A stretch of 30,459 bases of DNA from Bdellovibrio sp. Its GTDB lineage: Bacteria; Bdellovibrionota; Bdellovibrionia; Bdellovibrionales; Bdellovibrionaceae. Under the pieces are notes generated by a model. The model saw only the letters and a list, made by a program, of their open reading frames with translations. It did not search any database and had not been told where the DNA came from. Below, piece after piece: positions 1,538 to 12,473 of this stretch (position 1 is its first letter; each line of letters begins with the position of its first letter). Both the position numbers and the translations under genes were made by a program. The DNA lies in NCBI GenBank assembly GCA_046318155.1, contig JBKCUU010000055.1:1-30459 (forward strand), read 5' to 3'.

Positions 1538-2029
1538 TTACATTGATTGCAAAAGGTCCAAAATCTCGGGGGCCTTTTTTAGATTGTGTTTCGCGGCGAA
1601 GATCATTTCGATCGCTTTCTTTTGTGTCAACTTACCTTCGCCCATCCGCTGACAAGCGAGGCCTTCAATTGGATCTGTGATTTTGTAAATGGACTCATGC
1701 TGAGGCCAGAGATTATCTGCCTGATTGCTGCCCCCGGCGCAAAGCGGGATCAGGTGGTCGATCTTAAACTGCGGGCGCTGCTTCTTTTCAATGCGAAAAC
1801 CCAGTTTGTCATTGTAGTCCTGGATGATCTGCATTTTTTCTGATGTTTCAACATCACGCTTACAATAAGGAATGTGCTCTTTGTAGCGATAGCTATCGGG
1901 AGTCGTACAATACGACCCGGGAGTCAAAGTGCGGTCGGGACCAATTGGAAAACGGCCGCCTTCTGCTTGTGCAAAAACTTGAACCGAAGAGACCAGGACG
2001 GCGAAGACCATCAAGACGTACGATTTCAT
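1538..2029 (-). CDS. Secreted HNH-like (His-Me finger) nuclease
   Basis: Likely start ATG 2029 after AGGGGA. Signal peptide MKSYVLMVFAVLVSSVQVFA; motif KIDHLIPLCAGGSNQADNLWPQ matches the HNH beta-beta-alpha core. Confidence 0.75.
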   Translation of the reverse strand: MKSYVLMVFAVLVSSVQVFAQAEGGRFPIGPDRTLTPGSYCTTPDSYRYKEHIPYCKRDVETSEKMQIIQDYNDKLGFRIEKKQRPQFKIDHLIPLCAGGSNQADNLWPQHESIYKITDPIEGLACQRMGEGKLTQKKAIEMIFAAKHNLKKAPEILDLLQSM

Positions 2030-2033
2030 AATT

Positions 2034-2102
2034 CCCCTATTAGTCACCCATTTACGGCAGGTGGTAGAAACGCCAGACCCTATTTCCGGCTTATAACTGG
2101 AG
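2034..2102 (-). promoter_or_regulatory. Purine-family riboswitch aptamer (guanine-type, C74), copy 1; probable translational OFF switch
   Basis: Minus strand reads CUCCAGUUA UAA GCCGGA AAUAGGG UCUGGC GUUUCUAC CACCUG CCGUAAA UGGGUG AC UAAUAGGGG. J1/2 UAA, J2/3 GUUUCUAC, L3 CCGUAAA, the L2 GG kissing partner and paired P1/P2/P3 are all present. C74 equivalent at 2043. The 3' strand of P1 contains the RBS of the 2029 start. Confidence 0.93.
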
Positions 2103-2216
2103 CACGCCTTGGTGATACGAAAGAGCTCCCCCCTCCGGCAACAAAAATAAAATTTGCCAGGGATGTCGAAGTTCGGGCCTTGCGCTTAAGAGGCTTTCGG
2201 CCTAGCGTTTGAGTCC

Positions 2217-4262
2217 ATGGTTAAGTTGCTGATTCCTCTTCTTTATTTCGTGTTTTCGCTCCCCCTTGCGGCGCTGGCGAAAGACAAAATCGAGGACCTC
2301 ACACGGCTCGATGTTTTGCAAGAATCTCAGTCCCTTCACCCCGGGCAGCTCACCCACATCGGATTTCAGGTCCATCTGCTCAAGAAGGGTTGGCACACCT
2401 ACTGGAAGAACCCCGGCGATGCCGGCGCTCCGCCTAAACTCAAAGTCAGTGCAAATCTTGCCGGGATTGAGGTCGGCGAAATTTTGTTTCCGACTCCGCT
2501 TCGCATCGAAACAAAGACACTCGTGTCATTTGCCTACAAAGATGAGGTTTTGTATTTAGCGCCCCTTCGGATCCCAAAGTCCGTTTCTCCAGGTCAACGT
2601 TTGAACATCACGGTTGATTTCGAATGGCTGATTTGCCTTGAAGTTTGCATCCCCGCGCATGAAAAGCATGAGCTTAGCTGGGAGATCAGGAGCGAAGCTC
2701 GCATCGTGCCCGGCCCAAATGCAGGCCTGTTAAAACATGCGATCTCGGCTCTTCCTGTTCGCCGCGGGGAGCAGGGCGAGCTGGATGAAAAATTGGTCGG
2801 ACGCTTTCAAGGACTGCCGGGCAAGGTTCAATTTGTCGATTTTTTTGCGGCCCCTGACTCCGCACTTCTTCTGAATAAACCCAAAGGTGTTATTCGCGGC
2901 CCCGAGGCCGAAATCCAATTCGTCAAAGCTGAGTTTGCCGAGGGCGCGCCCAAAGCTCGCGGCCTTCTGGTGGTCGAAAATACTCAAAAGCAACGATCAA
3001 GTTTTGAATGGTCACCTGAACCACGTTGGTTCGAAGCCAGCGTTCTCAAGGCAAAGCCTGGATTTCAAATTTGGATGCTGATCCTCGCCTTTGCCGGCGG
3101 TTTAATCCTGAACCTCATGCCTTGTGTGCTTCCAGTCCTTTCACTGAAGCTGCTTTCACTCAGCAAACAGACCAACTTAAACCGCTCGCAAATTCGCTTC
3201 GATAACTTGAGTTATACGGCAGGCGTCGTCCTGAGCTTTGTCTTGATGGGCCTCACCTTGCTCGTGCTCCGCGAAACGGGAGAAAAACTGGGCTGGGGCT
3301 TCCAACTCCAGTCGCCGTTGTTCTTAGCTCTCATGGCCGTTCTCTTTTTTGTGATCGCACTTAATCTCATCGGTGTTTACGAATTTGATCTCGTCAATCC
3401 CAATTGGGGTTCAAGACATCTCAAGCACCCCGCGCTGTCGTCGTTCTTTACAGGCGTGCTCGCCGTCATCGTGGCGTCGCCTTGCACCGCTCCTTTTATG
3501 GGCGCGGCCCTCGGGTACGCCCTCTCGCAACCAGGACCCGTGTTCATTTTAGTTTTTGTCTGTCTCGGTCTTGGGCTCTCGTTTCCGTATTTGTTGTTTG
3601 CTCTTCAGCCCGGCTTTGTTCGGTTTTTGCCCAAGCCGGGAGCCTGGATGAAAACCTTGAAAGAACTCATGGCGTTTCCGATGCTGCTGACGGCACTATG
3701 GGTCTTGTGGGTCCTGGCTCAGGTGGGCGACTCCTTCGCCGTCACGCTCACGCTTGCGTTGATGGTCGGACTGGCCTTTTGCTTTTGGCTCCCCTCCCGG
3801 CGTCTGGCCTGGATCCTGGCGGCTTTGCAAGTTTTGAGCTTTATCGCTTTTTTTGATTTCTCAAAACTAGGGACCCAATCGGCAGCACGTGATGCCGCGG
3901 ACAAAAGCCGTCTTTGGCAAACTTTCGATTCCCGTCAACTTGAAGCCGAACGCTCGCAAATTTATTTTGTGAACTTTACGGCGGACTGGTGCCTCACGTG
4001 CAAAATCAACGAACGCACCATTTTTCAAGCGACAAGCCTACAAGAATTTTTTCGCGATCAGAATGTGGCTTTGATGCAAGCCGATTGGACTCAGCGAAAT
4101 CCCGAAATTAGTGATTTCTTGGCCCGCTATGATCGCATCGGTGTCCCACTCTACCTTGTTTTCCCCAAAGGTAAGGGTGCACCGATCATCTTGCCTGAAC
4201 TCATCACCGAAAATTTAGTTCGAGACGCAATCAAATCCATTCAACAAGGAGAAACCCGATGA
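2217..4262 (+). CDS. dsbD: Thiol:disulfide interchange protein DsbD (ScsB-like subfamily)
   Basis: N-terminal GWHTYWKNPGDAG and CLEVC; membrane domain with LNLMPCVLP and ASPCTAPF; C-terminal thioredoxin domain ADWCLTC. Confidence 0.92.
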   Translation: MVKLLIPLLYFVFSLPLAALAKDKIEDLTRLDVLQESQSLHPGQLTHIGFQVHLLKKGWHTYWKNPGDAGAPPKLKVSANLAGIEVGEILFPTPLRIETKTLVSFAYKDEVLYLAPLRIPKSVSPGQRLNITVDFEWLICLEVCIPAHEKHELSWEIRSEARIVPGPNAGLLKHAISALPVRRGEQGELDEKLVGRFQGLPGKVQFVDFFAAPDSALLLNKPKGVIRGPEAEIQFVKAEFAEGAPKARGLLVVENTQKQRSSFEWSPEPRWFEASVLKAKPGFQIWMLILAFAGGLILNLMPCVLPVLSLKLLSLSKQTNLNRSQIRFDNLSYTAGVVLSFVLMGLTLLVLRETGEKLGWGFQLQSPLFLALMAVLFFVIALNLIGVYEFDLVNPNWGSRHLKHPALSSFFTGVLAVIVASPCTAPFMGAALGYALSQPGPVFILVFVCLGLGLSFPYLLFALQPGFVRFLPKPGAWMKTLKELMAFPMLLTALWVLWVLAQVGDSFAVTLTLALMVGLAFCFWLPSRRLAWILAALQVLSFIAFFDFSKLGTQSAARDAADKSRLWQTFDSRQLEAERSQIYFVNFTADWCLTCKINERTIFQATSLQEFFRDQNVALMQADWTQRNPEISDFLARYDRIGVPLYLVFPKGKGAPIILPELITENLVRDAIKSIQQGETR

Positions 4263-4870
4263 AACGTATCGCAATCTTAATGAGCCTCTTCATGATAACA
4301 GGCTTAGCGACTCCCAGCTTTGCCGCGACGGCCGAAATTGGAAAAGCCGCCCCTGGCTTTAAACTCACCGGCGCCGATGGTAAAGAACACTCGCTCTCAC
4401 AGTACAAGGGCAAAACAGTTGTCCTCGAATGGTTCAACAACGAGTGCCCCTACGTAAAGAAGCATTACGACGTCGGCAACATGCAAAAGCTGCAAACCGA
4501 AGCGGCCGCAAAAGGCACCGTTTGGCTAACGATCAATTCTTCGGCTCCAGGCAAGCAAGGCCACCTCACGACAGACGCTGCGGCCAAACTTCGCACCGAA
4601 CGCAAAATGGCAAACACCAGTCTCTTGCTTGACCCTAAGGGCACTGTCGGCAGTCTGTACGGGGCTAAAACAACGCCGCACATGTACGTTATTGATCCCA
4701 AAGGGGTTTTGGCTTATGCCGGCGCCATTGACAGCGATTCTTCGGCAGATCCTAAAACCATCGCGGGCGCAAACAACTATGTGAGTGAGGCATTGGCCGC
4801 TGTAGCGGAAGGTAAAGCCGTCAAAACGACGACGACAAAACCCTACGGCTGCTCTGTCAAATATGAATAA
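4259..4870 (+). CDS. Exported redoxin / AhpC-TSA (PrxL-like) thioredoxin-fold protein
   Basis: Signal peptide, APGFKL...VVLEWFNNECPYV...KTTPHMYV...YAGAID...PYGCSVKY. ATGA overlap with dsbD suggests translational coupling. Confidence 0.88.
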   Translation: MKRIAILMSLFMITGLATPSFAATAEIGKAAPGFKLTGADGKEHSLSQYKGKTVVLEWFNNECPYVKKHYDVGNMQKLQTEAAAKGTVWLTINSSAPGKQGHLTTDAAAKLRTERKMANTSLLLDPKGTVGSLYGAKTTPHMYVIDPKGVLAYAGAIDSDSSADPKTIAGANNYVSEALAAVAEGKAVKTTTTKPYGCSVKYE

Positions 4871-5576: not shown

Positions 5577-5720
5577 ACAGAAGCTCCTTGAGAGCGGCGA
5601 TCTTTTCGCTCTGAAAAGCCTAAGTCAACCAAATTGCCGGCTTTGCAAAATTTTAAGAGTTCTGCTGGTTCAAATAGCCTATCATATCTGAATAACGGCC
5701 TCATCACTTTAGGATTACTT

Positions 5721-6215
5721 ATGCGGATTTTCATCCTCTTGTTTCTGGGATTAGCAGCCTGCTCGTCAATGCCGCTGGTGCCACTCCCAATCTCGTCGGA
5801 GAATCAAAGTTTTTTGAGCTCCTTTGACAAAATCAATGCTCAGGCCTTTAAAGACCTGAGCCGCGGGCAAGACCTCGAACAGGTTTCGATTTCATCCTAC
5901 ATGTTTGTCGTCGGTCGCTACAAATCCAAGCTGGCCAATCAGTTTCAAATTGCTTTCGAAGATTTTGAATACAAAGACCTGACTCCCTATCCCGGGACCT
6001 TTGTCGTTTGCGCCTATTCAACCCGCCGTAATCTGGTGATGTGTGACAACGTGGCCTGCGAGGGGATCGAAAATGCCGCAACCATCGTGGGGACCCGAGA
6101 TGAACCCTCAGTCGGCGCCCAATCTTTGGCTCAGATCAGCAGCTGGCGCGGCTCCTTTAAACCCAAACCTTGCAGTCCAAGCCGCAGCCGTTCGAGCACA
6201 AGCCCCGGGACCTGA
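5721..6215 (+). CDS. Hypothetical lipoprotein
   Basis: ATG 5721 gives MRIFILLFLGLAAC (lipobox); further Cys residues downstream. Confidence 0.7.
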   Translation: MRIFILLFLGLAACSSMPLVPLPISSENQSFLSSFDKINAQAFKDLSRGQDLEQVSISSYMFVVGRYKSKLANQFQIAFEDFEYKDLTPYPGTFVVCAYSTRRNLVMCDNVACEGIENAATIVGTRDEPSVGAQSLAQISSWRGSFKPKPCSPSRSRSSTSPGT

Positions 6216-6297
6216 CGAACTTCTGATCACCCTTGCATTGATTTCTGAAGGACCAATCGCGGCGGGCTGACTTTTTAGGATTGTGTTAAAAAGTCCT

Positions 6298-7116
6298 ATG
6301 CTTAAACACCTTCTGTTTTCTTTTTTGGCCCTAGCCTTCCTCGCTTCGTGCGCGAAGAGCGAAAAGAGTGAGGGGGCTGAAGCCCGCACGTCTCAGGCCA
6401 TCTCGCATATGGAACGCGGTGAGTACGATCTAGCCATCGAGATCTTGTCAGAGCTTCGAGTTGCCCACCCCGAAGATTCAAACCTATCATTGCATTTAGC
6501 TTCAGCTTTTGCCGGCCGAGCCGGACTCAAAGTCGAAAATTACTGGGGCTTTGTTGTTGGCTACAAAGGCGTTTTCAAAAAAAATACCGAAGGGCTGACC
6601 CCGCAGAGCTTGCCGCAAATTGATCTCAAAGGCTTTGAAAGTCAGGCTGGCCCCGAAGTCCGCGGGGCCGTCAAAAATTTTAATCAGAATCTCAAAGAGT
6701 TTTTCAAAATCAAACAAAGACTCGATCAAGTCCCCTACCTTAATGCTCAGAAGCGAAAAGATCTCTACCGGGGCCTGGACGTCATCAAAGAACATCCAAC
6801 GCCGGGGGGACGCCTGTACCGCGCTGTTCTCGGCGTGGTCATCGCACGCTCGACCATCATCGACACCTCACGCTCCTTGGAGGTTTGGTCAAAAAGTGGC
6901 CGCCGCCTCTGCGGCCCTGAGTTTCGCTTGCTCGCGGACTGGGTGGGCTTTTCAGTTCAAATCTTAGCAGAACTCGCGGGCGATCTTGCCCATGCATTTC
7001 CCAAAGATAAAACCCAGCTTTTGAAGGCCGAAGTCGAACTCAGCAGGGCGGCGAAAGTCACTCGTGAACTCATGGGCCAAACACGGCAAGGAGCTGCCCT
7101 GTGCGCGCGGCCCTAA
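6298..7116 (+). CDS. TPR-like helical lipoprotein
   Basis: Lipobox FLASC; TPR-like segment AISHMERGEYDLAIEILSEL...LHLASAFAGRAG. Confidence 0.72.
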   Translation: MLKHLLFSFLALAFLASCAKSEKSEGAEARTSQAISHMERGEYDLAIEILSELRVAHPEDSNLSLHLASAFAGRAGLKVENYWGFVVGYKGVFKKNTEGLTPQSLPQIDLKGFESQAGPEVRGAVKNFNQNLKEFFKIKQRLDQVPYLNAQKRKDLYRGLDVIKEHPTPGGRLYRAVLGVVIARSTIIDTSRSLEVWSKSGRRLCGPEFRLLADWVGFSVQILAELAGDLAHAFPKDKTQLLKAEVELSRAAKVTRELMGQTRQGAALCARP

Positions 7117-8147
7117 TTCTGACTTCAGTTCTCATGAGCACTCACCTTTCTGCGCTCGGGTTTGAGGCTCCCCGGGCAATGGCGACGGGCGGCTCCAGCT
7201 TTCTAATGCAGAACTTAGGCCTCATGTGTTTTGGTTTTGATCTGGCGGCCGACACGCTCCCTTGCAACCCCTCGTTTATCGCGATGAAGCGCGAAGGACG
7301 ACTCAAAGCCAGCATTTTTCTAGGCAACAATGTCAGCTACACCCAAGAAGCCTCAGATTTGCTCAATGAGCGCGCCAGCGAAGAGACCATCCGCCATTTA
7401 TTTTCAGAGCAAGACCGCTCTGAATTTGAAACAAATCTCGAGGCCGGCTACTGGGGCCAAACCTGGGGGGCGGCAATCTCTCCCGTGCGACTCAATTACA
7501 TGACAACCTTTCGCAACCCCGCTCTACCTGAGATCACTTTATTTGCGAGCCAAGAAGAATCCGCACGCCTGCAGTTTGGGACCTATCTTGGTAACGACCT
7601 TTTTACTGGCGTTCAGCTGCGCGCCGTTCACCGTAAATTTATCTCCAAACAATTTTTTTTGACAGATGCTCTCGCCAACGATGGTGATCGCTTCTTTGAG
7701 ACCGACAACCAGAGCATTCTTTATATCGAACCTGGTTTGCTCTACGCTCCCGAAAATCACAAATGGAACCCGCTGCTCTTTTTTAACATCGTGAACTTTG
7801 GCCTTGTCGACAAAACTCAAGATGCTTTTCCGATGCGCCCACAATACCACATCGGATCCTCGGTCGCGCTTGATGTTGGATTGGGGCGATGGGGCGTTGG
7901 GATCGACCTGGCTTGGGACAACAATGTGACCAGCGCCCTCGAGCCCCTAACGGCCGCGAGCTTTTACGAATTCGGAATTCTAAGACTCTTGGGACACATC
8001 AGTGAGCGGTCAAACAGCGTGGGCTTTCAGGTCTCATCGGTGTTTTTTAATATCGGCTTAGCTTCGCAAGCCAAAACCGTCGATGATGGCTGGGACAACA
8101 AGATCACGGACCGACGCCTGTACTTGCTCTTGGGGGCCGAAATATGA
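7101..8147 (+). CDS. Outer-membrane beta-barrel protein (FadL/PorV/TraF_2-like)
   Basis: Signal peptide; N-terminal PRAMATGG ... NPSFIA plug-like motif; amphipathic beta strands; C-terminal strand RLYLLLGAEI. The family assignment is an inference. Confidence 0.6.
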   Translation: MRAALILTSVLMSTHLSALGFEAPRAMATGGSSFLMQNLGLMCFGFDLAADTLPCNPSFIAMKREGRLKASIFLGNNVSYTQEASDLLNERASEETIRHLFSEQDRSEFETNLEAGYWGQTWGAAISPVRLNYMTTFRNPALPEITLFASQEESARLQFGTYLGNDLFTGVQLRAVHRKFISKQFFLTDALANDGDRFFETDNQSILYIEPGLLYAPENHKWNPLLFFNIVNFGLVDKTQDAFPMRPQYHIGSSVALDVGLGRWGVGIDLAWDNNVTSALEPLTAASFYEFGILRLLGHISERSNSVGFQVSSVFFNIGLASQAKTVDDGWDNKITDRRLYLLLGAEI

Positions 8148-8695
8148 AGTTCATCTTGATCGTTTTCTTGTCGCTGTCTGGCCTTCAAGCCTTGGCGAAG
8201 CCTCGAAAAAGCCTTCAAGCCTCGGATTGGGACTCGTTTCAATCGGCCATCCTGGAGAGCGAACTTGAAGATCGCAAAATCGGTTGGAGCTACATCGCTT
8301 CGGGCGTGCTGGTCACCTTGGGCGGCATCGTGGGAGCAAGCTCAAGTGGCGACTCTTCAAGCAAGCTTATTTATGGGTTGTCACAAGGTTTTGGTGTGGC
8401 GGCGACTGGTTACGGAACGGCCCGTCTGTCGATCGGCAATGACTACAATTCTTTTTACGATTCTATCGAAGGCTCGTCGTTGTCAAAAGATCAGAAAAAT
8501 TCCTTGGTCCGAATCTTTATCGAGAGCGAACGTGAAAAACGCGAAGCGATTCGCAAAATTAGCATTGCGACTCACTCAGCGATTGGAGTCTTAAATCTTT
8601 ACTCGGCATCGCGAGAACAAGACAAAGATGCAAAAACCGCTTTGCAATTTTTGGCTGTTGTGAACTTTGCCTTTGCCATCGGGTACGCATTCTAA
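8144..8695 (+). CDS. Exported protein with Gly/Ala-rich hydrophobic helices
   Basis: Signal peptide, ATGA overlap with the upstream gene, hydrophobic segments, ends in F. Confidence 0.7.
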   Translation: MKFILIVFLSLSGLQALAKPRKSLQASDWDSFQSAILESELEDRKIGWSYIASGVLVTLGGIVGASSSGDSSSKLIYGLSQGFGVAATGYGTARLSIGNDYNSFYDSIEGSSLSKDQKNSLVRIFIESEREKREAIRKISIATHSAIGVLNLYSASREQDKDAKTALQFLAVVNFAFAIGYAF

Positions 8696-8710
8696 ATTCA
8701 AACAAGGCTG

Positions 8711-8980
8711 TTAATACGATTGCTTACCTGTGTTCAAAGCTGGTCGCCGAGTTTTTGCAGCTTCTTGGACTTCGATGAGAACGCTCGTAATCTGATCTTG
8801 CACACCCAAGATTTCGGCAATTTTAGAGAGCCAGTAAACAGGCACTTTTGAAGGAGACTTGAGCAACTCATCAATCACAATGTCGGGAACCAAATGCCCG
8901 AGCAACAGGGGTCTGAGGTCCCGGTTCACCGGACTGGCTTGCAAAATTTGGCTGATTTTTTCGTCAAGGTGTCCAGACAT
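8711..8980 (-). CDS. Small hypothetical protein, possibly a degenerate XRE-type HTH
   Basis: ATG 8980 (MSGHLDEK...). The segment IDELLKSPSKVPVYWLSKIAEILGV resembles the C-terminal half of XRE domains. Confidence 0.45.
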   Translation of the reverse strand: MSGHLDEKISQILQASPVNRDLRPLLLGHLVPDIVIDELLKSPSKVPVYWLSKIAEILGVQDQITSVLIEVQEAAKTRRPALNTGKQSY

Positions 8981-9132
8981 CTTGAGGCCCCACTTATAAC
9001 TCAAAATTCTAGTCAGCTTATGGTTTGGAGTCAAGCTTCATGCCAACATGACAACTCGGGGCCTGATCCAAAGATTACAGAAAACGGGGCTGCCTCTTGT
9101 GGAAAAACAGCTCGCGTGAGACTTAACTCCCT

Positions 9133-10053
9133 ATGAAAAACATCTTATTTGCCTTGGTTCTTTTGTCGTCGGTGATGGCCAACTCCCAATCCACGGAGCG
9201 CGATTTTAGAGCCGAAATCAGTACCGCCTTGTTGATCCAAGACCTCGATCTGTCGCAACCAGCTCGTCTGACCCGAGTTGACCTCAGCTCAGACTCAGAT
9301 GCCGACTACGTTTCGATTCGGCTCGAGCACCCACGTGCAGGTCAAATCAATTTGCTGCTTAGAGGTCCGACCGGCTTTATGAGTGCAAATCACCGTTCGC
9401 TCAGATCACTGCTTCTTGTCTCTGGTTTTTTTACCGGTAAAGAAAGCGTGCGACTCTTGGAAGCGATTCCTCGCACCGTGATTGTTGGGTATCAATATCC
9501 TTACAAAGCCGACGATTTTGCTCGAGATCCTGCCTTGATCGCGCAGTTCCTACGTCAGACTCCCGGGCAAATAGCCCTCGCCTTGCAGTGGATCTCGGGA
9601 CAACCCTGGGCCGCGCCCAAAGGTTTAATCACAGCTGGTGTGAGCCTCGGCGGACTTATTCTTCCCACGGCTTTGCACATGGCTCAAAAAATGAACGTGC
9701 AGATCCCTCGCACCGTTTTTGTTTGCACGGGCGCCCACCTCACTCCCATTTTGGAATCGTTGCTGCGCCCCTCTCTCGGAAACGCCAAGGCCCGCCAAAT
9801 CGCCATGGGTGTTGCCAACCTCACCGCCTTGCACGATCCCAAGCTGCATTTGCCCTATCTCAAAGGCTCATTTTTGAGTATTCGGACCGACCGAGACCAA
9901 GTCATTCCCGAGAGTTCGACGCTTTTGCTTGAAGATCTCTTACCCGTCGTGACCAGCGTCGTGCTGCCAGGGCCCCACATCAACCCCGACCAAACAGAAG
10001 TCATTCGCCAAACGCGCGAAACAATTCTGCGTTGGCTAAACCCAGCACCTTGA
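9133..10053 (+). CDS. Secreted alpha/beta hydrolase
   Basis: Signal peptide; nucleophile elbow GVSLGG; DQVIP (Asp) and GPHI (His) in canonical order. Confidence 0.82.
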   Translation: MKNILFALVLLSSVMANSQSTERDFRAEISTALLIQDLDLSQPARLTRVDLSSDSDADYVSIRLEHPRAGQINLLLRGPTGFMSANHRSLRSLLLVSGFFTGKESVRLLEAIPRTVIVGYQYPYKADDFARDPALIAQFLRQTPGQIALALQWISGQPWAAPKGLITAGVSLGGLILPTALHMAQKMNVQIPRTVFVCTGAHLTPILESLLRPSLGNAKARQIAMGVANLTALHDPKLHLPYLKGSFLSIRTDRDQVIPESSTLLLEDLLPVVTSVVLPGPHINPDQTEVIRQTRETILRWLNPAP

Positions 10054-10064
10054 AGGAGCACAAA

Positions 10065-10280
10065 ATGCAAAAATCCGAATCCACAAATAGCAATCAGACC
10101 GTCAGCACAAACGTGGGCATAAAAGGCGTGATTCTTTCCGCGACGTCGCGAGAGAACCTCTGCGAGCGTTTTGGCTGCTCATGGACAAGGCTGATCGAAT
10201 TCCTTGAGACCGAAGAACTACTTTCGGACAAAGACGTCAGCCTCAAACTTCTTCAACTCCAACGCGAACGCATTCACTAG
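10065..10280 (+). CDS. Small hypothetical protein
   Basis: AAGGAG RBS before ATG 10065; 71 aa. Confidence 0.55.
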   Translation: MQKSESTNSNQTVSTNVGIKGVILSATSRENLCERFGCSWTRLIEFLETEELLSDKDVSLKLLQLQRERIH

Positions 10281-10293
10281 GGTACAGCCGTCC

Positions 10294-10326
10294 GGCCGGC
10301 ACCTCAAAACCCGTGCCGCCATTTTG
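10294..10326 (+). terminator. Possible intrinsic terminator
   Basis: CGGCAC (10297-10302) pairs with GTGCCG (10313-10318), followed by CCATTTTG; long loop and weak U tract. Confidence 0.3.
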
Positions 10327-10352
10327 CAAAGTCCTTGACCCAGAGGCGCAAA

Positions 10353-11321
10353 ATGACCGGCGAGAACCTTCAAATTCAACCTAACGCAAAAGGACTGCTC
10401 GTTTGGGCAGCATTTGCCGTTTTGACTCTTTCAGCATGCGCGAAAAATGGCTACAACACGAAAAGTTTACCAAACGAAACTCCCGCGATCCCTGCACCGG
10501 TTGGCCCTGGAGAAAAACCCCTTGTTACAGCTCCCCCCGAGGCTTCAAGACGAACGGAGAAAATAGAGCCGCCGGCGCCGGAAAAAGCTGAACGAAATGC
10601 GCCGCCGCCGCCGGCACCACCGCCGCAGGCAAGCCTTGAACGAAATGCGCGTCCTCCCAATTCGGCTCGGCTTGACACCAACCCTGAACCTGAATTTGAT
10701 CCCCCTTATCGCCCTCGCGAGCCGGCTCCTCCGCCTGCGCCGAATTACCGACATGAACCCCTGTCGTGGGAGTCGGTTTCAAAACCTGAGCGCAAAGGAT
10801 GGTCGAATTTTGTGCACCAAGAGGTTGAAAAAAATTTCGAAATTTTGGACAAGGCACGAGACACCGAAAGATTTTGCCGACGCTATGAATCTTTAAGTCG
10901 CCCGGCGCGGATTAACTTTTGGGGGATGCTGATTTCTCAAATGGCTTTGCACGAGAGCAGTTGGAATCCAACCTTGAGCGTTCTTGAAACGACGATGGGA
11001 CTGGACAAGACCACCGGCAAGCGCGTCTTTAGTGAGGGTCTTCTTCAACTGTCGTATCAGGACATGACTTGGACCAGGCGCTGTAAGTTTGACTGGGAAG
11101 CCGATAAAATTTTAGGTCAACGAGATCCCAGAAAAACGATTCTTGATCCCTACCGCAATCTCGAGTGCGGCATCGAGATTATGACACGGCAAGTTCGCAG
11201 ACACCGCCGCATCGTGATGGAGAACAATGTCTACTGGGCTGTTTTACGTGAAGGCGGAAAATACAATAAAATTCCGGCCATCGCGATGGCAGTTGCGATA
11301 CACCTGAAGGCCTGCAATTAA
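10353..11321 (+). CDS. Lipoprotein with a Pro-rich linker and a lytic transglycosylase (SLT) domain
   Basis: Lipobox LSAC; Pro-rich linker; SLT motifs ALHESSWNP (catalytic Glu), SEGLLQL, LDPYRNLECG. Start uncertain (10335 TTG or 10353 ATG). Confidence 0.85.
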   Translation: MTGENLQIQPNAKGLLVWAAFAVLTLSACAKNGYNTKSLPNETPAIPAPVGPGEKPLVTAPPEASRRTEKIEPPAPEKAERNAPPPPAPPPQASLERNARPPNSARLDTNPEPEFDPPYRPREPAPPPAPNYRHEPLSWESVSKPERKGWSNFVHQEVEKNFEILDKARDTERFCRRYESLSRPARINFWGMLISQMALHESSWNPTLSVLETTMGLDKTTGKRVFSEGLLQLSYQDMTWTRRCKFDWEADKILGQRDPRKTILDPYRNLECGIEIMTRQVRRHRRIVMENNVYWAVLREGGKYNKIPAIAMAVAIHLKACN

Positions 11322-11340
11322 GCCAGGCCTTCGGGACTTC

Positions 11341-11682
11341 TTAGCAGCCCGAACCTTCCATGACAATTTCATGCATCACGCGGTTTTGCGTGTCGATGAT
11401 CATGAGTGATGGAAAAATCACTCCGCACTGAACCGCACCCTTAGGGCTTACGCCGTAACGAACAGACTTGATCGAGCGCAGGACTTGAAAAGCCCGTTTA
11501 GTTTTGAGCATGCCCTCAGCAAATTTAATTTTATCGGCATCGGTCTGGTCGCCCTCTTCAAGAGCCGTTTCAAGCGCGCCTTCGATGTAGCTCTCACGCA
11601 GAGCAAATTCACGGAGCATGTCTTTGGCCTCACCAGGAGTCACTGTGTGAGTACTCGAACCCTCCGCAATCGAGGCGATCAA
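11341..11682 (-). CDS. Hypothetical protein, probably 5'-truncated
   Basis: Protein-like frame ending ...EGSGC*. The frame stays open upstream of the TTG to an in-frame TGA, with no good RBS or ATG. Confidence 0.45.
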   Translation of the reverse strand: MIASIAEGSSTHTVTPGEAKDMLREFALRESYIEGALETALEEGDQTDADKIKFAEGMLKTKRAFQVLRSIKSVRYGVSPKGAVQCGVIFPSLMIIDTQNRVMHEIVMEGSGC

Positions 11683-11906
11683 ATCAGCCGCTGCGGCAAT
11701 ACGCTCAGCAATTGCAGGGGCTTTCGCCCTTGTTTGTTCCAGGCATCAGTAATGCCTTCGCTCAAAAAAGAGAAAGACATAATGAAATATTATAGATGCG
11801 TATTACGCATGATTACGGAGGGACGGACCAGACCCGGATCACGCGAAACTCGAACTTAAAATATATTTTGAATTAGAATAAATGCACGTTGAGCTTCGCC
11901 CCGCTT

Positions 11907-12473
11907 TTAATGACGAGGGCAGCGGCCTTGGCTCTGGCACTTCATCAACAGGCCACGAAGATCCATCAGCTCACCCAACGTGTTTTCGAGCTCGATATCA
12001 AAGCCGTTGGCCTTGGCACCTTTTTGCGCGATCGCAACATATCTTTGAACGTTGCGAAATTGACGGGTGTCGTATTGGTGGTTGTCACCATCTTGCATCG
12101 AGATTTTACGACCCAAGTTTTTTTGAAAACGTTGACGCTGATCGTGAGCCTTGGCGCGAGCGCCCGAGAAGCTCTTCCAGCATTTCACTTCGCCCACCAA
12201 GACGGCGTCTTGAGAACGCTTGTCAAAGATGACAACATCAAGCTCACCAATCGTGCGGCTGCTATCTCCATAAACGATTCCATTGACGATGTCGTAATCT
12301 TTTGCGGGGTAGATTTTTTCAAGCTCGATCACGGCTACTTTTTCGCAAACCATACCGATGATGTCGTAATTCGCACCTGACTCTTTGAGCTCTTCAAAAA
12401 GCTCAGAAACAGGAGCCGCTGACACGAGGTTTGAAAACGAAAATACCAAGAGAAAAAGCGACATGCTTTTCAT
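11907..12473 (-). CDS. Secreted PD-(D/E)XK-fold putative nuclease
   Basis: GGAGGA RBS; signal peptide MKSMSLFLLVFSFSNLVSA; GMVCEKVA ... IGELDVVIFD ... LVGEVKCW gives the E / D / ExK active-site pattern. Confidence 0.75.
   Translation of the reverse strand: MKSMSLFLLVFSFSNLVSAAPVSELFEELKESGANYDIIGMVCEKVAVIELEKIYPAKDYDIVNGIVYGDSSRTIGELDVVIFDKRSQDAVLVGEVKCWKSFSGARAKAHDQRQRFQKNLGRKISMQDGDNHQYDTRQFRNVQRYVAIAQKGAKANGFDIELENTLGELMDLRGLLMKCQSQGRCPRH

Follow-up and report, generated by a model that had tools for sequence, protein, structure and literature searches.

Genetic context of copy 1 and structure of the aptamer

The stretch of DNA under study (the window: 30,459 nt of a Bdellovibrio sp. genome, contig JBKCUU010000055.1) carries two purine riboswitch aptamers of the same type, each followed by a gene for a predicted secreted nuclease (Table 1). 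Copy 1 lies on the minus strand, at 2102–2034; the first-pass annotation, which had described a guanine-class switch at this place, gave no strand. An Rfam scan of the window matched the segment to RF00167 (2118–2021, minus strand; 51.3 bits, E 4.4e-6, model positions 1–102; gathering score 37), and the plus strand at 2020–2120 folded no better than shuffled sequences (z 0.49). The P1 helix that had been proposed, CUCC-A-GUUA with UAAU-A-GGGG, was recovered in the minus-strand sequence as eight pairs and one A·A mismatch, with a predicted energy of −4.2 kcal/mol, a value reached by 5 of 100 shuffles of the 5′ strand. All four first-shell bases ascribed to the guanine class are present, U22 at 2093, U47 at 2070, U51 at 2066 and C74 at 2043. 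They are named by the xpt numbering, which agrees with published descriptions. The three junctions agree with the Rfam consensus and are unexpanded, and P1 closes on the pair A21–U75. P2 has 6 bp and 19 nt separate UAUAA from GUUUCUAC, both as annotated.

Table 1. Positions of the features discussed in the text
Feature	Position	Strand	Basis
Purine riboswitch aptamer, guanine-type (RF00167), copy 1	2034..2102	-	Rfam, 51.3 bits
Leader segment predicted to pair with 2020–2007 (codons 3–8), stacked on P1, AUG looped out	2103..2116	-	Predicted 9+4-bp helix
P1 5′ strand CUCCAGUUA (CUCC-A-GUUA), anti-SD half	2094..2102	-	Sequence
J1/2: U22 (2093), A23, A24	2091..2093	-	Rfam match, position reading
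P2 hairpin: 2090–2085 with 2077–2072, 6 bp, 7-nt loop ending in G37 G38	2072..2090	-	
J2/3 GUUUCUAC, 8 nt: U47 (2070), U51 (2066)	2064..2071	-	Rfam match, position reading
P3 hairpin: 2063–2058 with 2050–2045, 6 bp, loop CCGUAAA, kissing partner of L2	2045..2063	-	
J3/1: A73 and C74 (2043; guanine-discriminating base), without insertion	2043..2044	-	
P1 3′ strand UAAUAGGGG (UAAU-A-GGGG), SD inside	2034..2042	-	Sequence
Shine–Dalgarno (SD) AGGGGA, last G 4 nt ahead of ATG (2029)	2033..2038	-	Anti-SD duplex
163-aa protein, signal-peptide-like N-terminus, HNH-like motif (predicted secreted nuclease)	1538..2029	-	Pfam, homologues, fold search
Copy 2, same switch type: 6-bp P2, SD in P1	12469..12566	-	Rfam, 51.2 bits
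188-aa protein behind copy 2, signal-peptide-like N-terminus, PD-(D/E)XK (restriction-endonuclease-like) predicted fold	11907..12473	-	

The switch shares a 187-nt intergenic region with a divergent DsbD-like gene, behind which comes an AhpC/TSA redoxin (2217–4870, plus strand), and the 2102–2216 gap between aptamer and dsbD-like gene yielded no sigma-70 promoter. Elsewhere in the window, a series of ORFs of middling size occupies 5634–11859 (plus strand); a weak TPR was the one Pfam match among them.

The Shine–Dalgarno sequence lies within P1

Translation of the gene behind copy 1 starts at ATG 2029, as the first-pass annotation had it: an existing gene call gives the identical 163-aa protein (P0003), and the signal-peptide-like N-termini of 33 aligned family members start at a similar place. 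We discounted GTG 2047 as a start, since it is in frame but sits inside P3 and is not preceded by an SD. The 4-nt SD spacing was shared by 47 of 378 roughly called starts in the source genome (mode 5). The 3′ end of the 16S rRNA in this genome (contig C62) is canonical, and its duplex with AGGGG was calculated at −6.4 kcal/mol. In agreement with the claim that the ribosome-binding site (RBS) is part of the ligand-stabilised helix, the 3′ strand of P1 carries the SD, and four of the five bases that pair with the anti-SD are held in the predicted P1.

Each of 78 distinct leaders had its SD partly paired in the predicted P1, and the first G of the SD run fell at positions 78–80 in 67. The natural P1 was stronger than that formed with shuffled 5′ strands in 77/78 leaders and than that formed with swapped strands in 59/78. 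Coverage of the SD by P1 was 0.64 against 0.58 with shuffled strands, and with the natural 5′ strand it was 0.57 against 0.59 with strands swapped from relatives, a control that was set aside as having no discriminating power for coverage. Since SD coverage barely differs from that of swapped or shuffled strands, the evidence for an overlap of SD and P1 lies more in position than in specific complementarity, and the case for an SD in P1 is that the SD begins within the first few P1 pairs.

Energetics of P1 and a predicted outer helix

Without ligand, the full P1 added about 2 kcal/mol to the predicted stability of the aptamer (−15.3 vs −13.3 kcal/mol), a gain smaller than the SD–16S pairing, which suits a helix formed only with ligand. 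The element had also been described as having no separate expression platform, which stands in so far as the stretch from aptamer to start codon is too short for a terminator, but needs qualifying in copy 1, where a 9+4-bp outer helix is predicted (Table 1). This predicted pairing beats every non-cognate pairing, the minimum-energy fold of a longer copy 1 leader retains the outer helix and loses P1, and opening of the ribosome footprint in the presence of the outer helix is predicted to cost about 11 kcal/mol. If the transcript begins upstream of 2116, the outer helix could thus repress copy 1 without ligand. The aptamer might, on this evidence, bind guanine and give its output through the outer leader-coding helix, or else mainly through mRNA decay or Rho after ribosome loss. 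We consider this improbable, given that the helix is not general (7/84 switches fell below the 5% rank, with about 4 expected), that the position of the SD relative to C74 is conserved in the order (87/92 switches, see below) and that no terminator-like site was found in 1480–2300.

Covariation across relatives

We aligned 46 switches, ungapped and picked for equal length and lower redundancy. Over the P1/P2/P3 three-way junction, 87.1% of the cells were paired and 19 of the 23 pairs had changed on both sides (0/500 shuffles). P2 and P3, with 96.7% and 93% of their cells paired, showed two-sided changes in all 12 of their pairs (6/6 in P2). The L2–L3 kissing pairs G37–C61 and G38–C60 were found in 46/46 sequences; being invariant, they are without covariation support. 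Of the seven outer P1 pairs, 66.5% of cells were paired compared with 52.7% after shuffling (0/500 shuffles), with a covariation of 0.43 vs 0.24, and registers in which the outer P1 was slid gave 35–53%; two of the five measures for the outer P1 were not above shuffles, and relatedness inflates such tests.

These figures bear on whether the aptamer could be a non-functional relic upstream of a gene expressed without purine control. The score of copy 1 (51 bits) is low beside those of Bacillota switches (46–95 bits), and some homologous genes have no switch. A relic nevertheless appears very improbable, since P2 and P3 are 93–97% paired with two-sided changes throughout, the core is invariant, and the element is found ahead of several unrelated nuclease folds, often at least two of them in one genome.

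The downstream genes encode predicted secreted nucleases

The 163-aa protein behind copy 1 matched Pfam HNH_5 with 19.4 bits (E 0.001), below the cut-off of 27.5. Residues D91, H92, N102 and N106 were invariant in 33/33 homologues. We take this D-H ... N ... N arrangement to be the HNH active-site motif. Fold matches were weak (E 0.14, best Z 4.2), with HNH domains among the top ones, and the PDB, searched by sequence and by fold, yielded no clear counterpart. The protein occurs in 29 of 31 genomes of the same family, and its named homologues are mostly from Bdellovibrionota, with one labelled Calothrix. The 188-aa protein behind copy 2 had no Pfam match above the cut-off; its E-L-D and E-V-K motifs were invariant in eight homologues, and its best Foldseek matches were BstEII, BpuSI and NucC.

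When the genes behind the switches of the order were compared by BLAST, the 87 whose start codon lies 12–20 nt past C74 fell into six groups: small HNH-like proteins (50), endonuclease I (21), two groups of EEP proteins (6 and 3), PD-(D/E)XK-like proteins (5) and S1/P1 nucleases (2). Pfam was applied to 63 of the 92 downstream genes, and the PD-(D/E)XK call comes from the motifs and the fold search. By a crude test for a hydrophobic N-terminus, 86/87 of the downstream proteins passed.

Viewed from the gene side, a switch was present within 300 nt upstream of 51 of the 56 close HNH homologues and of none of the 54 distant ones. These distant homologues, the order-wide matches under 165 bits, form a subfamily without a switch, which suggests acquisition of the switch by a single clade. 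A covariance model trained on the lineage detected no switch ahead of the 5 close and 13 distant HNH homologues that were scanned with it, all without an Rfam match. In the source genome, the same model and Rfam gave no RF00167 copies beyond copies 1 and 2, and the genes for endonuclease I (contig C49, about 10777–11630, minus strand) and EEP (contig C31, about 8500–9570, plus strand) are without a switch, while relatives of both have one. The switch is therefore not obligatory for these nucleases, since 5/56 close and 54/54 distant HNH homologues do without it, as do these two genes. Searching the source genome by tblastn detected GuaB, PurC, a weak PurL and a guanine-deaminase-like gene, none of them with a purine switch; Xpt and a putative NCS2 permease, used as queries, were unmatched at E 1e-4.

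Distribution and layout of the switch in Bdellovibrio-like bacteria

Of the 151 genomes searched in the order, 57 had RF00167 matches, 94 in all; among the 57 were 30 of the 31 other genomes of the family. The counts given here use 92 of the 94 matches, the two weakest, which have the same form, being left out. U22, U47, U51 and C74 were conserved in 92/92 switches, and the start codon lay 12–20 nt after C74 in 87/92, the layout of copy 1 being shared ahead of all six nuclease groups. The other five have longer leaders, four of them ahead of EamA transporters and one cut off. As relatives are not independent, these counts of layout measure conservation and not separate events; the presence of the switch ahead of unrelated nuclease folds suggests repeated rewiring.

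Outside the order, 11 genomes in a sample of the phylum had an RF00167 match, and all nine that could be parsed preceded the HNH-like family at 13–16 nt. In a Bacillota control, none of 33 switches had a start codon 10–22 nt after C74. Among the matches listed in a pattern scan for short-P2 switches (see below), none of 57 loci from outside the Bdellovibrio-like group with a called gene had its start within 20 nt, the nearest being at 21–23 nt; the genomes with the SD-in-P1 layout among these matches were, where named, of Bdellovibrio or Pseudobdellovibrionaceae types.

Two kinds of departure were observed among the switches of the order. Enlarged L2 or L3 loops occur in L089, L091, L070, L072 and L078 (P2 segment up to 30 nt, L3 up to 19 nt), with the core and the position of the SD kept. 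The EamA subgroup (L044, L073, L077 and L092, and the truncated L081) combines a short P2 and C48 with a start codon 41–55 nt past C74, and its leader behind the aptamer forms a hairpin over the purine-rich bases ahead of the start codon, so that in the EamA-type copies a purine exporter may be under the control of an ON switch.

The short P2 and the class of ligand

In the first-pass annotation the 6-bp P2 was read as a possible sign of an altered ligand. The comparison was with the B. subtilis xpt aptamer, whose segment has 21 nt. The figure agrees with the Rfam consensus (7-bp P2) and with 17 of 26 random Bacillota switches, in which the remaining segments were of 20 nt (7), 23 nt (1) and 19 nt (1); this set is an even sample of genomes, and 26 of its 27 switches outside the centre genome were measured. 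Among the 92 switches of the order, the segment was of 19 nt in 72, 18 nt in 19, 30 nt in 1 and 21 nt in none.

To the question of how common a short P2 is, the answer is divided: ordinary switches have it too, but as a minority (1/26 random Bacillota). We scanned for segments of 18–19 nt with P3 fixed at 6 nt, a pattern that gives presence and not frequency. Among the matches listed there were at least 80 named short-P2 loci, 13 of Bdellovibrio type, 66 from other bacteria and one left unclassified, which shares the HNH layout; a further 39 with short flanks and no listed names were left out of the counts. At least five of the six P2 positions paired in 61 of the 66 non-Bdellovibrio loci. Of 30 proteins behind the non-Bdellovibrio switches among these matches, eight were Xpt, four GuaB, three PurL, two guanine deaminase and one each PurC, Fhs and an ABC permease, and ten had no NCBIfam hit. 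Since short-P2 switches precede xpt, guaB, purL, purC and guanine deaminase genes, a 6-bp P2 serves ordinary guanine regulons, and the suggestion that it signals an altered ligand was not borne out. It characterises the lineage and does not point to a new ligand.

The known variant classes (adenine, 2′-dG-I, -II and -III, xanthine-II, guanine-II and 8-oxoguanine) were rejected on their defining bases, the markers of which are absent from copy 1. What makes a variant ligand worth weighing is gene context and not stem length. The typical guanine-I switch precedes a gene for the synthesis, salvage or uptake of purines (PMC9295807), and in earlier cases variant ligands came to notice through atypical genes (PMC9295807, PMC10556655); the gene behind copy 1 is a predicted nuclease gene, a departure from a context that is typical of guanine-I and does not define it. 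2′-dG-II switches are likewise found ahead of endonuclease I and also of ComEC (PMC8872408). The OFF architecture might be kept with 2′-deoxyguanosine, guanosine, xanthine or another product of prey nucleic acids as ligand, the specificity being shifted by features of the second shell, for instance the short P2 and its closing pair G25–C45. The genes associated with the switch are almost wholly nucleases, and 18–19-nt segments in 91/92 switches of the order set the lineage apart from the random Bacillota. We nonetheless consider a variant ligand unlikely: copy 1 has U51, an uninserted J3/1 and an A–U closing pair, it has U47 and no G51, short P2 stems elsewhere precede ordinary purine genes, and the best 2-aminopurine binders were natural guanine aptamers with a P2 starting with G–C or G–U (PMC2018637).

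Proposed mechanism

We estimate at roughly 70% the probability that copy 1 is a guanine-type riboswitch whose P1 contains the RBS of a predicted secreted HNH-like nuclease and which represses translation directly. We infer both the identity of the ligand and the OFF logic of copy 1. In this model P1 would be marginal without ligand, and with about 2 kcal/mol to set against 6.4 kcal/mol the 30S subunit would prevail; binding of guanine or hypoxanthine would close the junction, P1 would hold and the nuclease would not be made. Such an arrangement would constitute a feedback loop: when short of purines, a Bdellovibrio-like predator or scavenger would make more of an enzyme that degrades nucleic acids. 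It offers a possible mechanism by which Bdellovibrio might meter how prey nucleic acids are digested. The switch also hints at a function for two families that are mostly called hypothetical in databases, and it is a natural and very compact translational switch usable for engineering Bdellovibrio.

Link to Bd3507 of B. bacteriovorus

In B. bacteriovorus, the DNase Bd3507 was shown to be secreted into prey, and mCherry was fused at the bd3507 start codon with primer E040 (Bukowska-Faniband 2020, PMC7925074). The reverse complement of E040, as given there, consists of the P3 3′ strand, J3/1, the P1 3′ strand, GGAGG and GTG, and it matched 4 of 276 loci, all of them switch–endonuclease I loci in genomes of the family of the source genome. 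As E040 reads as the 3′ half of a switch, the secreted Bd3507 has a switch leader, and a reporter for it exists. The matching loci encode endonuclease I, unlike copy 1 with its small HNH-like protein. The term riboswitch has no occurrence in the main text of PMC7925074.

The same source describes a bd0934 bd3507 double deletion in which extracellular DNase was raised in predatory cultures and the same in host-independent ones; no nuclease transcript was strongly up, and the possible explanations offered there were translation or a nuclease yet to be identified. Release of a translational OFF switch by purine shortage would fit this rise in DNase, for which the switch-controlled small HNH-like protein is a candidate. 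With a switch leader on bd3507 of B. bacteriovorus, the rise in the double deletion becomes testable. A more far-reaching proposal would be a Bdellovibrionota class with a guanine-type first shell that reads a digestion product of prey nucleic acids (for example 2′-deoxyguanosine or guanosine), has come repeatedly to control secreted nucleases of at least five unrelated folds, meters the breakdown of prey DNA by translational feedback and explains the DNase rise of the double deletion; taken as a whole, we regard it as unlikely.

Comparison with known systems

Copy 1 shares with the guanine-I class (RF00167; B. subtilis xpt-pbuX) the three-way junction, the L2–L3 G–C pairs, U22, U47, U51 and C74, and A21–U75, and its positions 24, 48 and 73 are within the consensus given in PMC2018637. 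It differs in that P2 has 6 bp and not 7, that the SD and start codon stand right behind the aptamer in place of a terminator platform, that the regulated genes encode predicted secreted nucleases and not proteins of purine synthesis, salvage or transport, and that the host lineage is Bdellovibrionota and not Bacillota.

With the purine-family variants the likeness is in gene context and the differences are at the defining bases. The 2′-dG-II switches of Bacteroidetes also place a purine-family scaffold ahead of DNA-acting genes, including endonuclease I (PMC8872408), but their markers are C51, a 2-nt insertion in J3/1 and a junction-proximal G–C pair in P1 (PMC6847200), where copy 1 has U51, a J3/1 of 2 nt in all and A21–U75. 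The marker of 2′-dG-I is C at the equivalents of 22 and 51 (PMC6847200), both U in copy 1, and 2′-dG-III departs from the guanine consensus in three joining regions, in all of which copy 1 matches it. Xanthine-II and guanine-II have insertions in J2/3 and J3/1, with G51 in xanthine-II, compared with an 8-nt J2/3, a 2-nt J3/1 and U51 in copy 1. The 8-oxoguanine riboswitch is without the U47 that copy 1 has at 2070, and adenine riboswitches have U74 in place of the C74 at 2043.

The closest mechanistic parallel is the direct translation attenuation of some SAM-I switches, in which the 3′ side of P1 incorporates the RBS and hides it when ligand stabilises that helix (Barrick and Breaker 2007, PMC2258182); aptamer and ligand are others. 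In what that source says of the mechanism, the usual users are TPP, preQ1 and SAM-I, and purine switches are not named. A literature search combining Bdellovibrio with riboswitch terms gave no paper on a nuclease riboswitch regulon; Bdellovibrio purine switches may be among the members listed in Rfam. Neither the aptamer nor the SD-in-P1 mechanism is new in itself; the new part is their use together, across a lineage of predatory bacteria, in a regulon of secreted nucleases.
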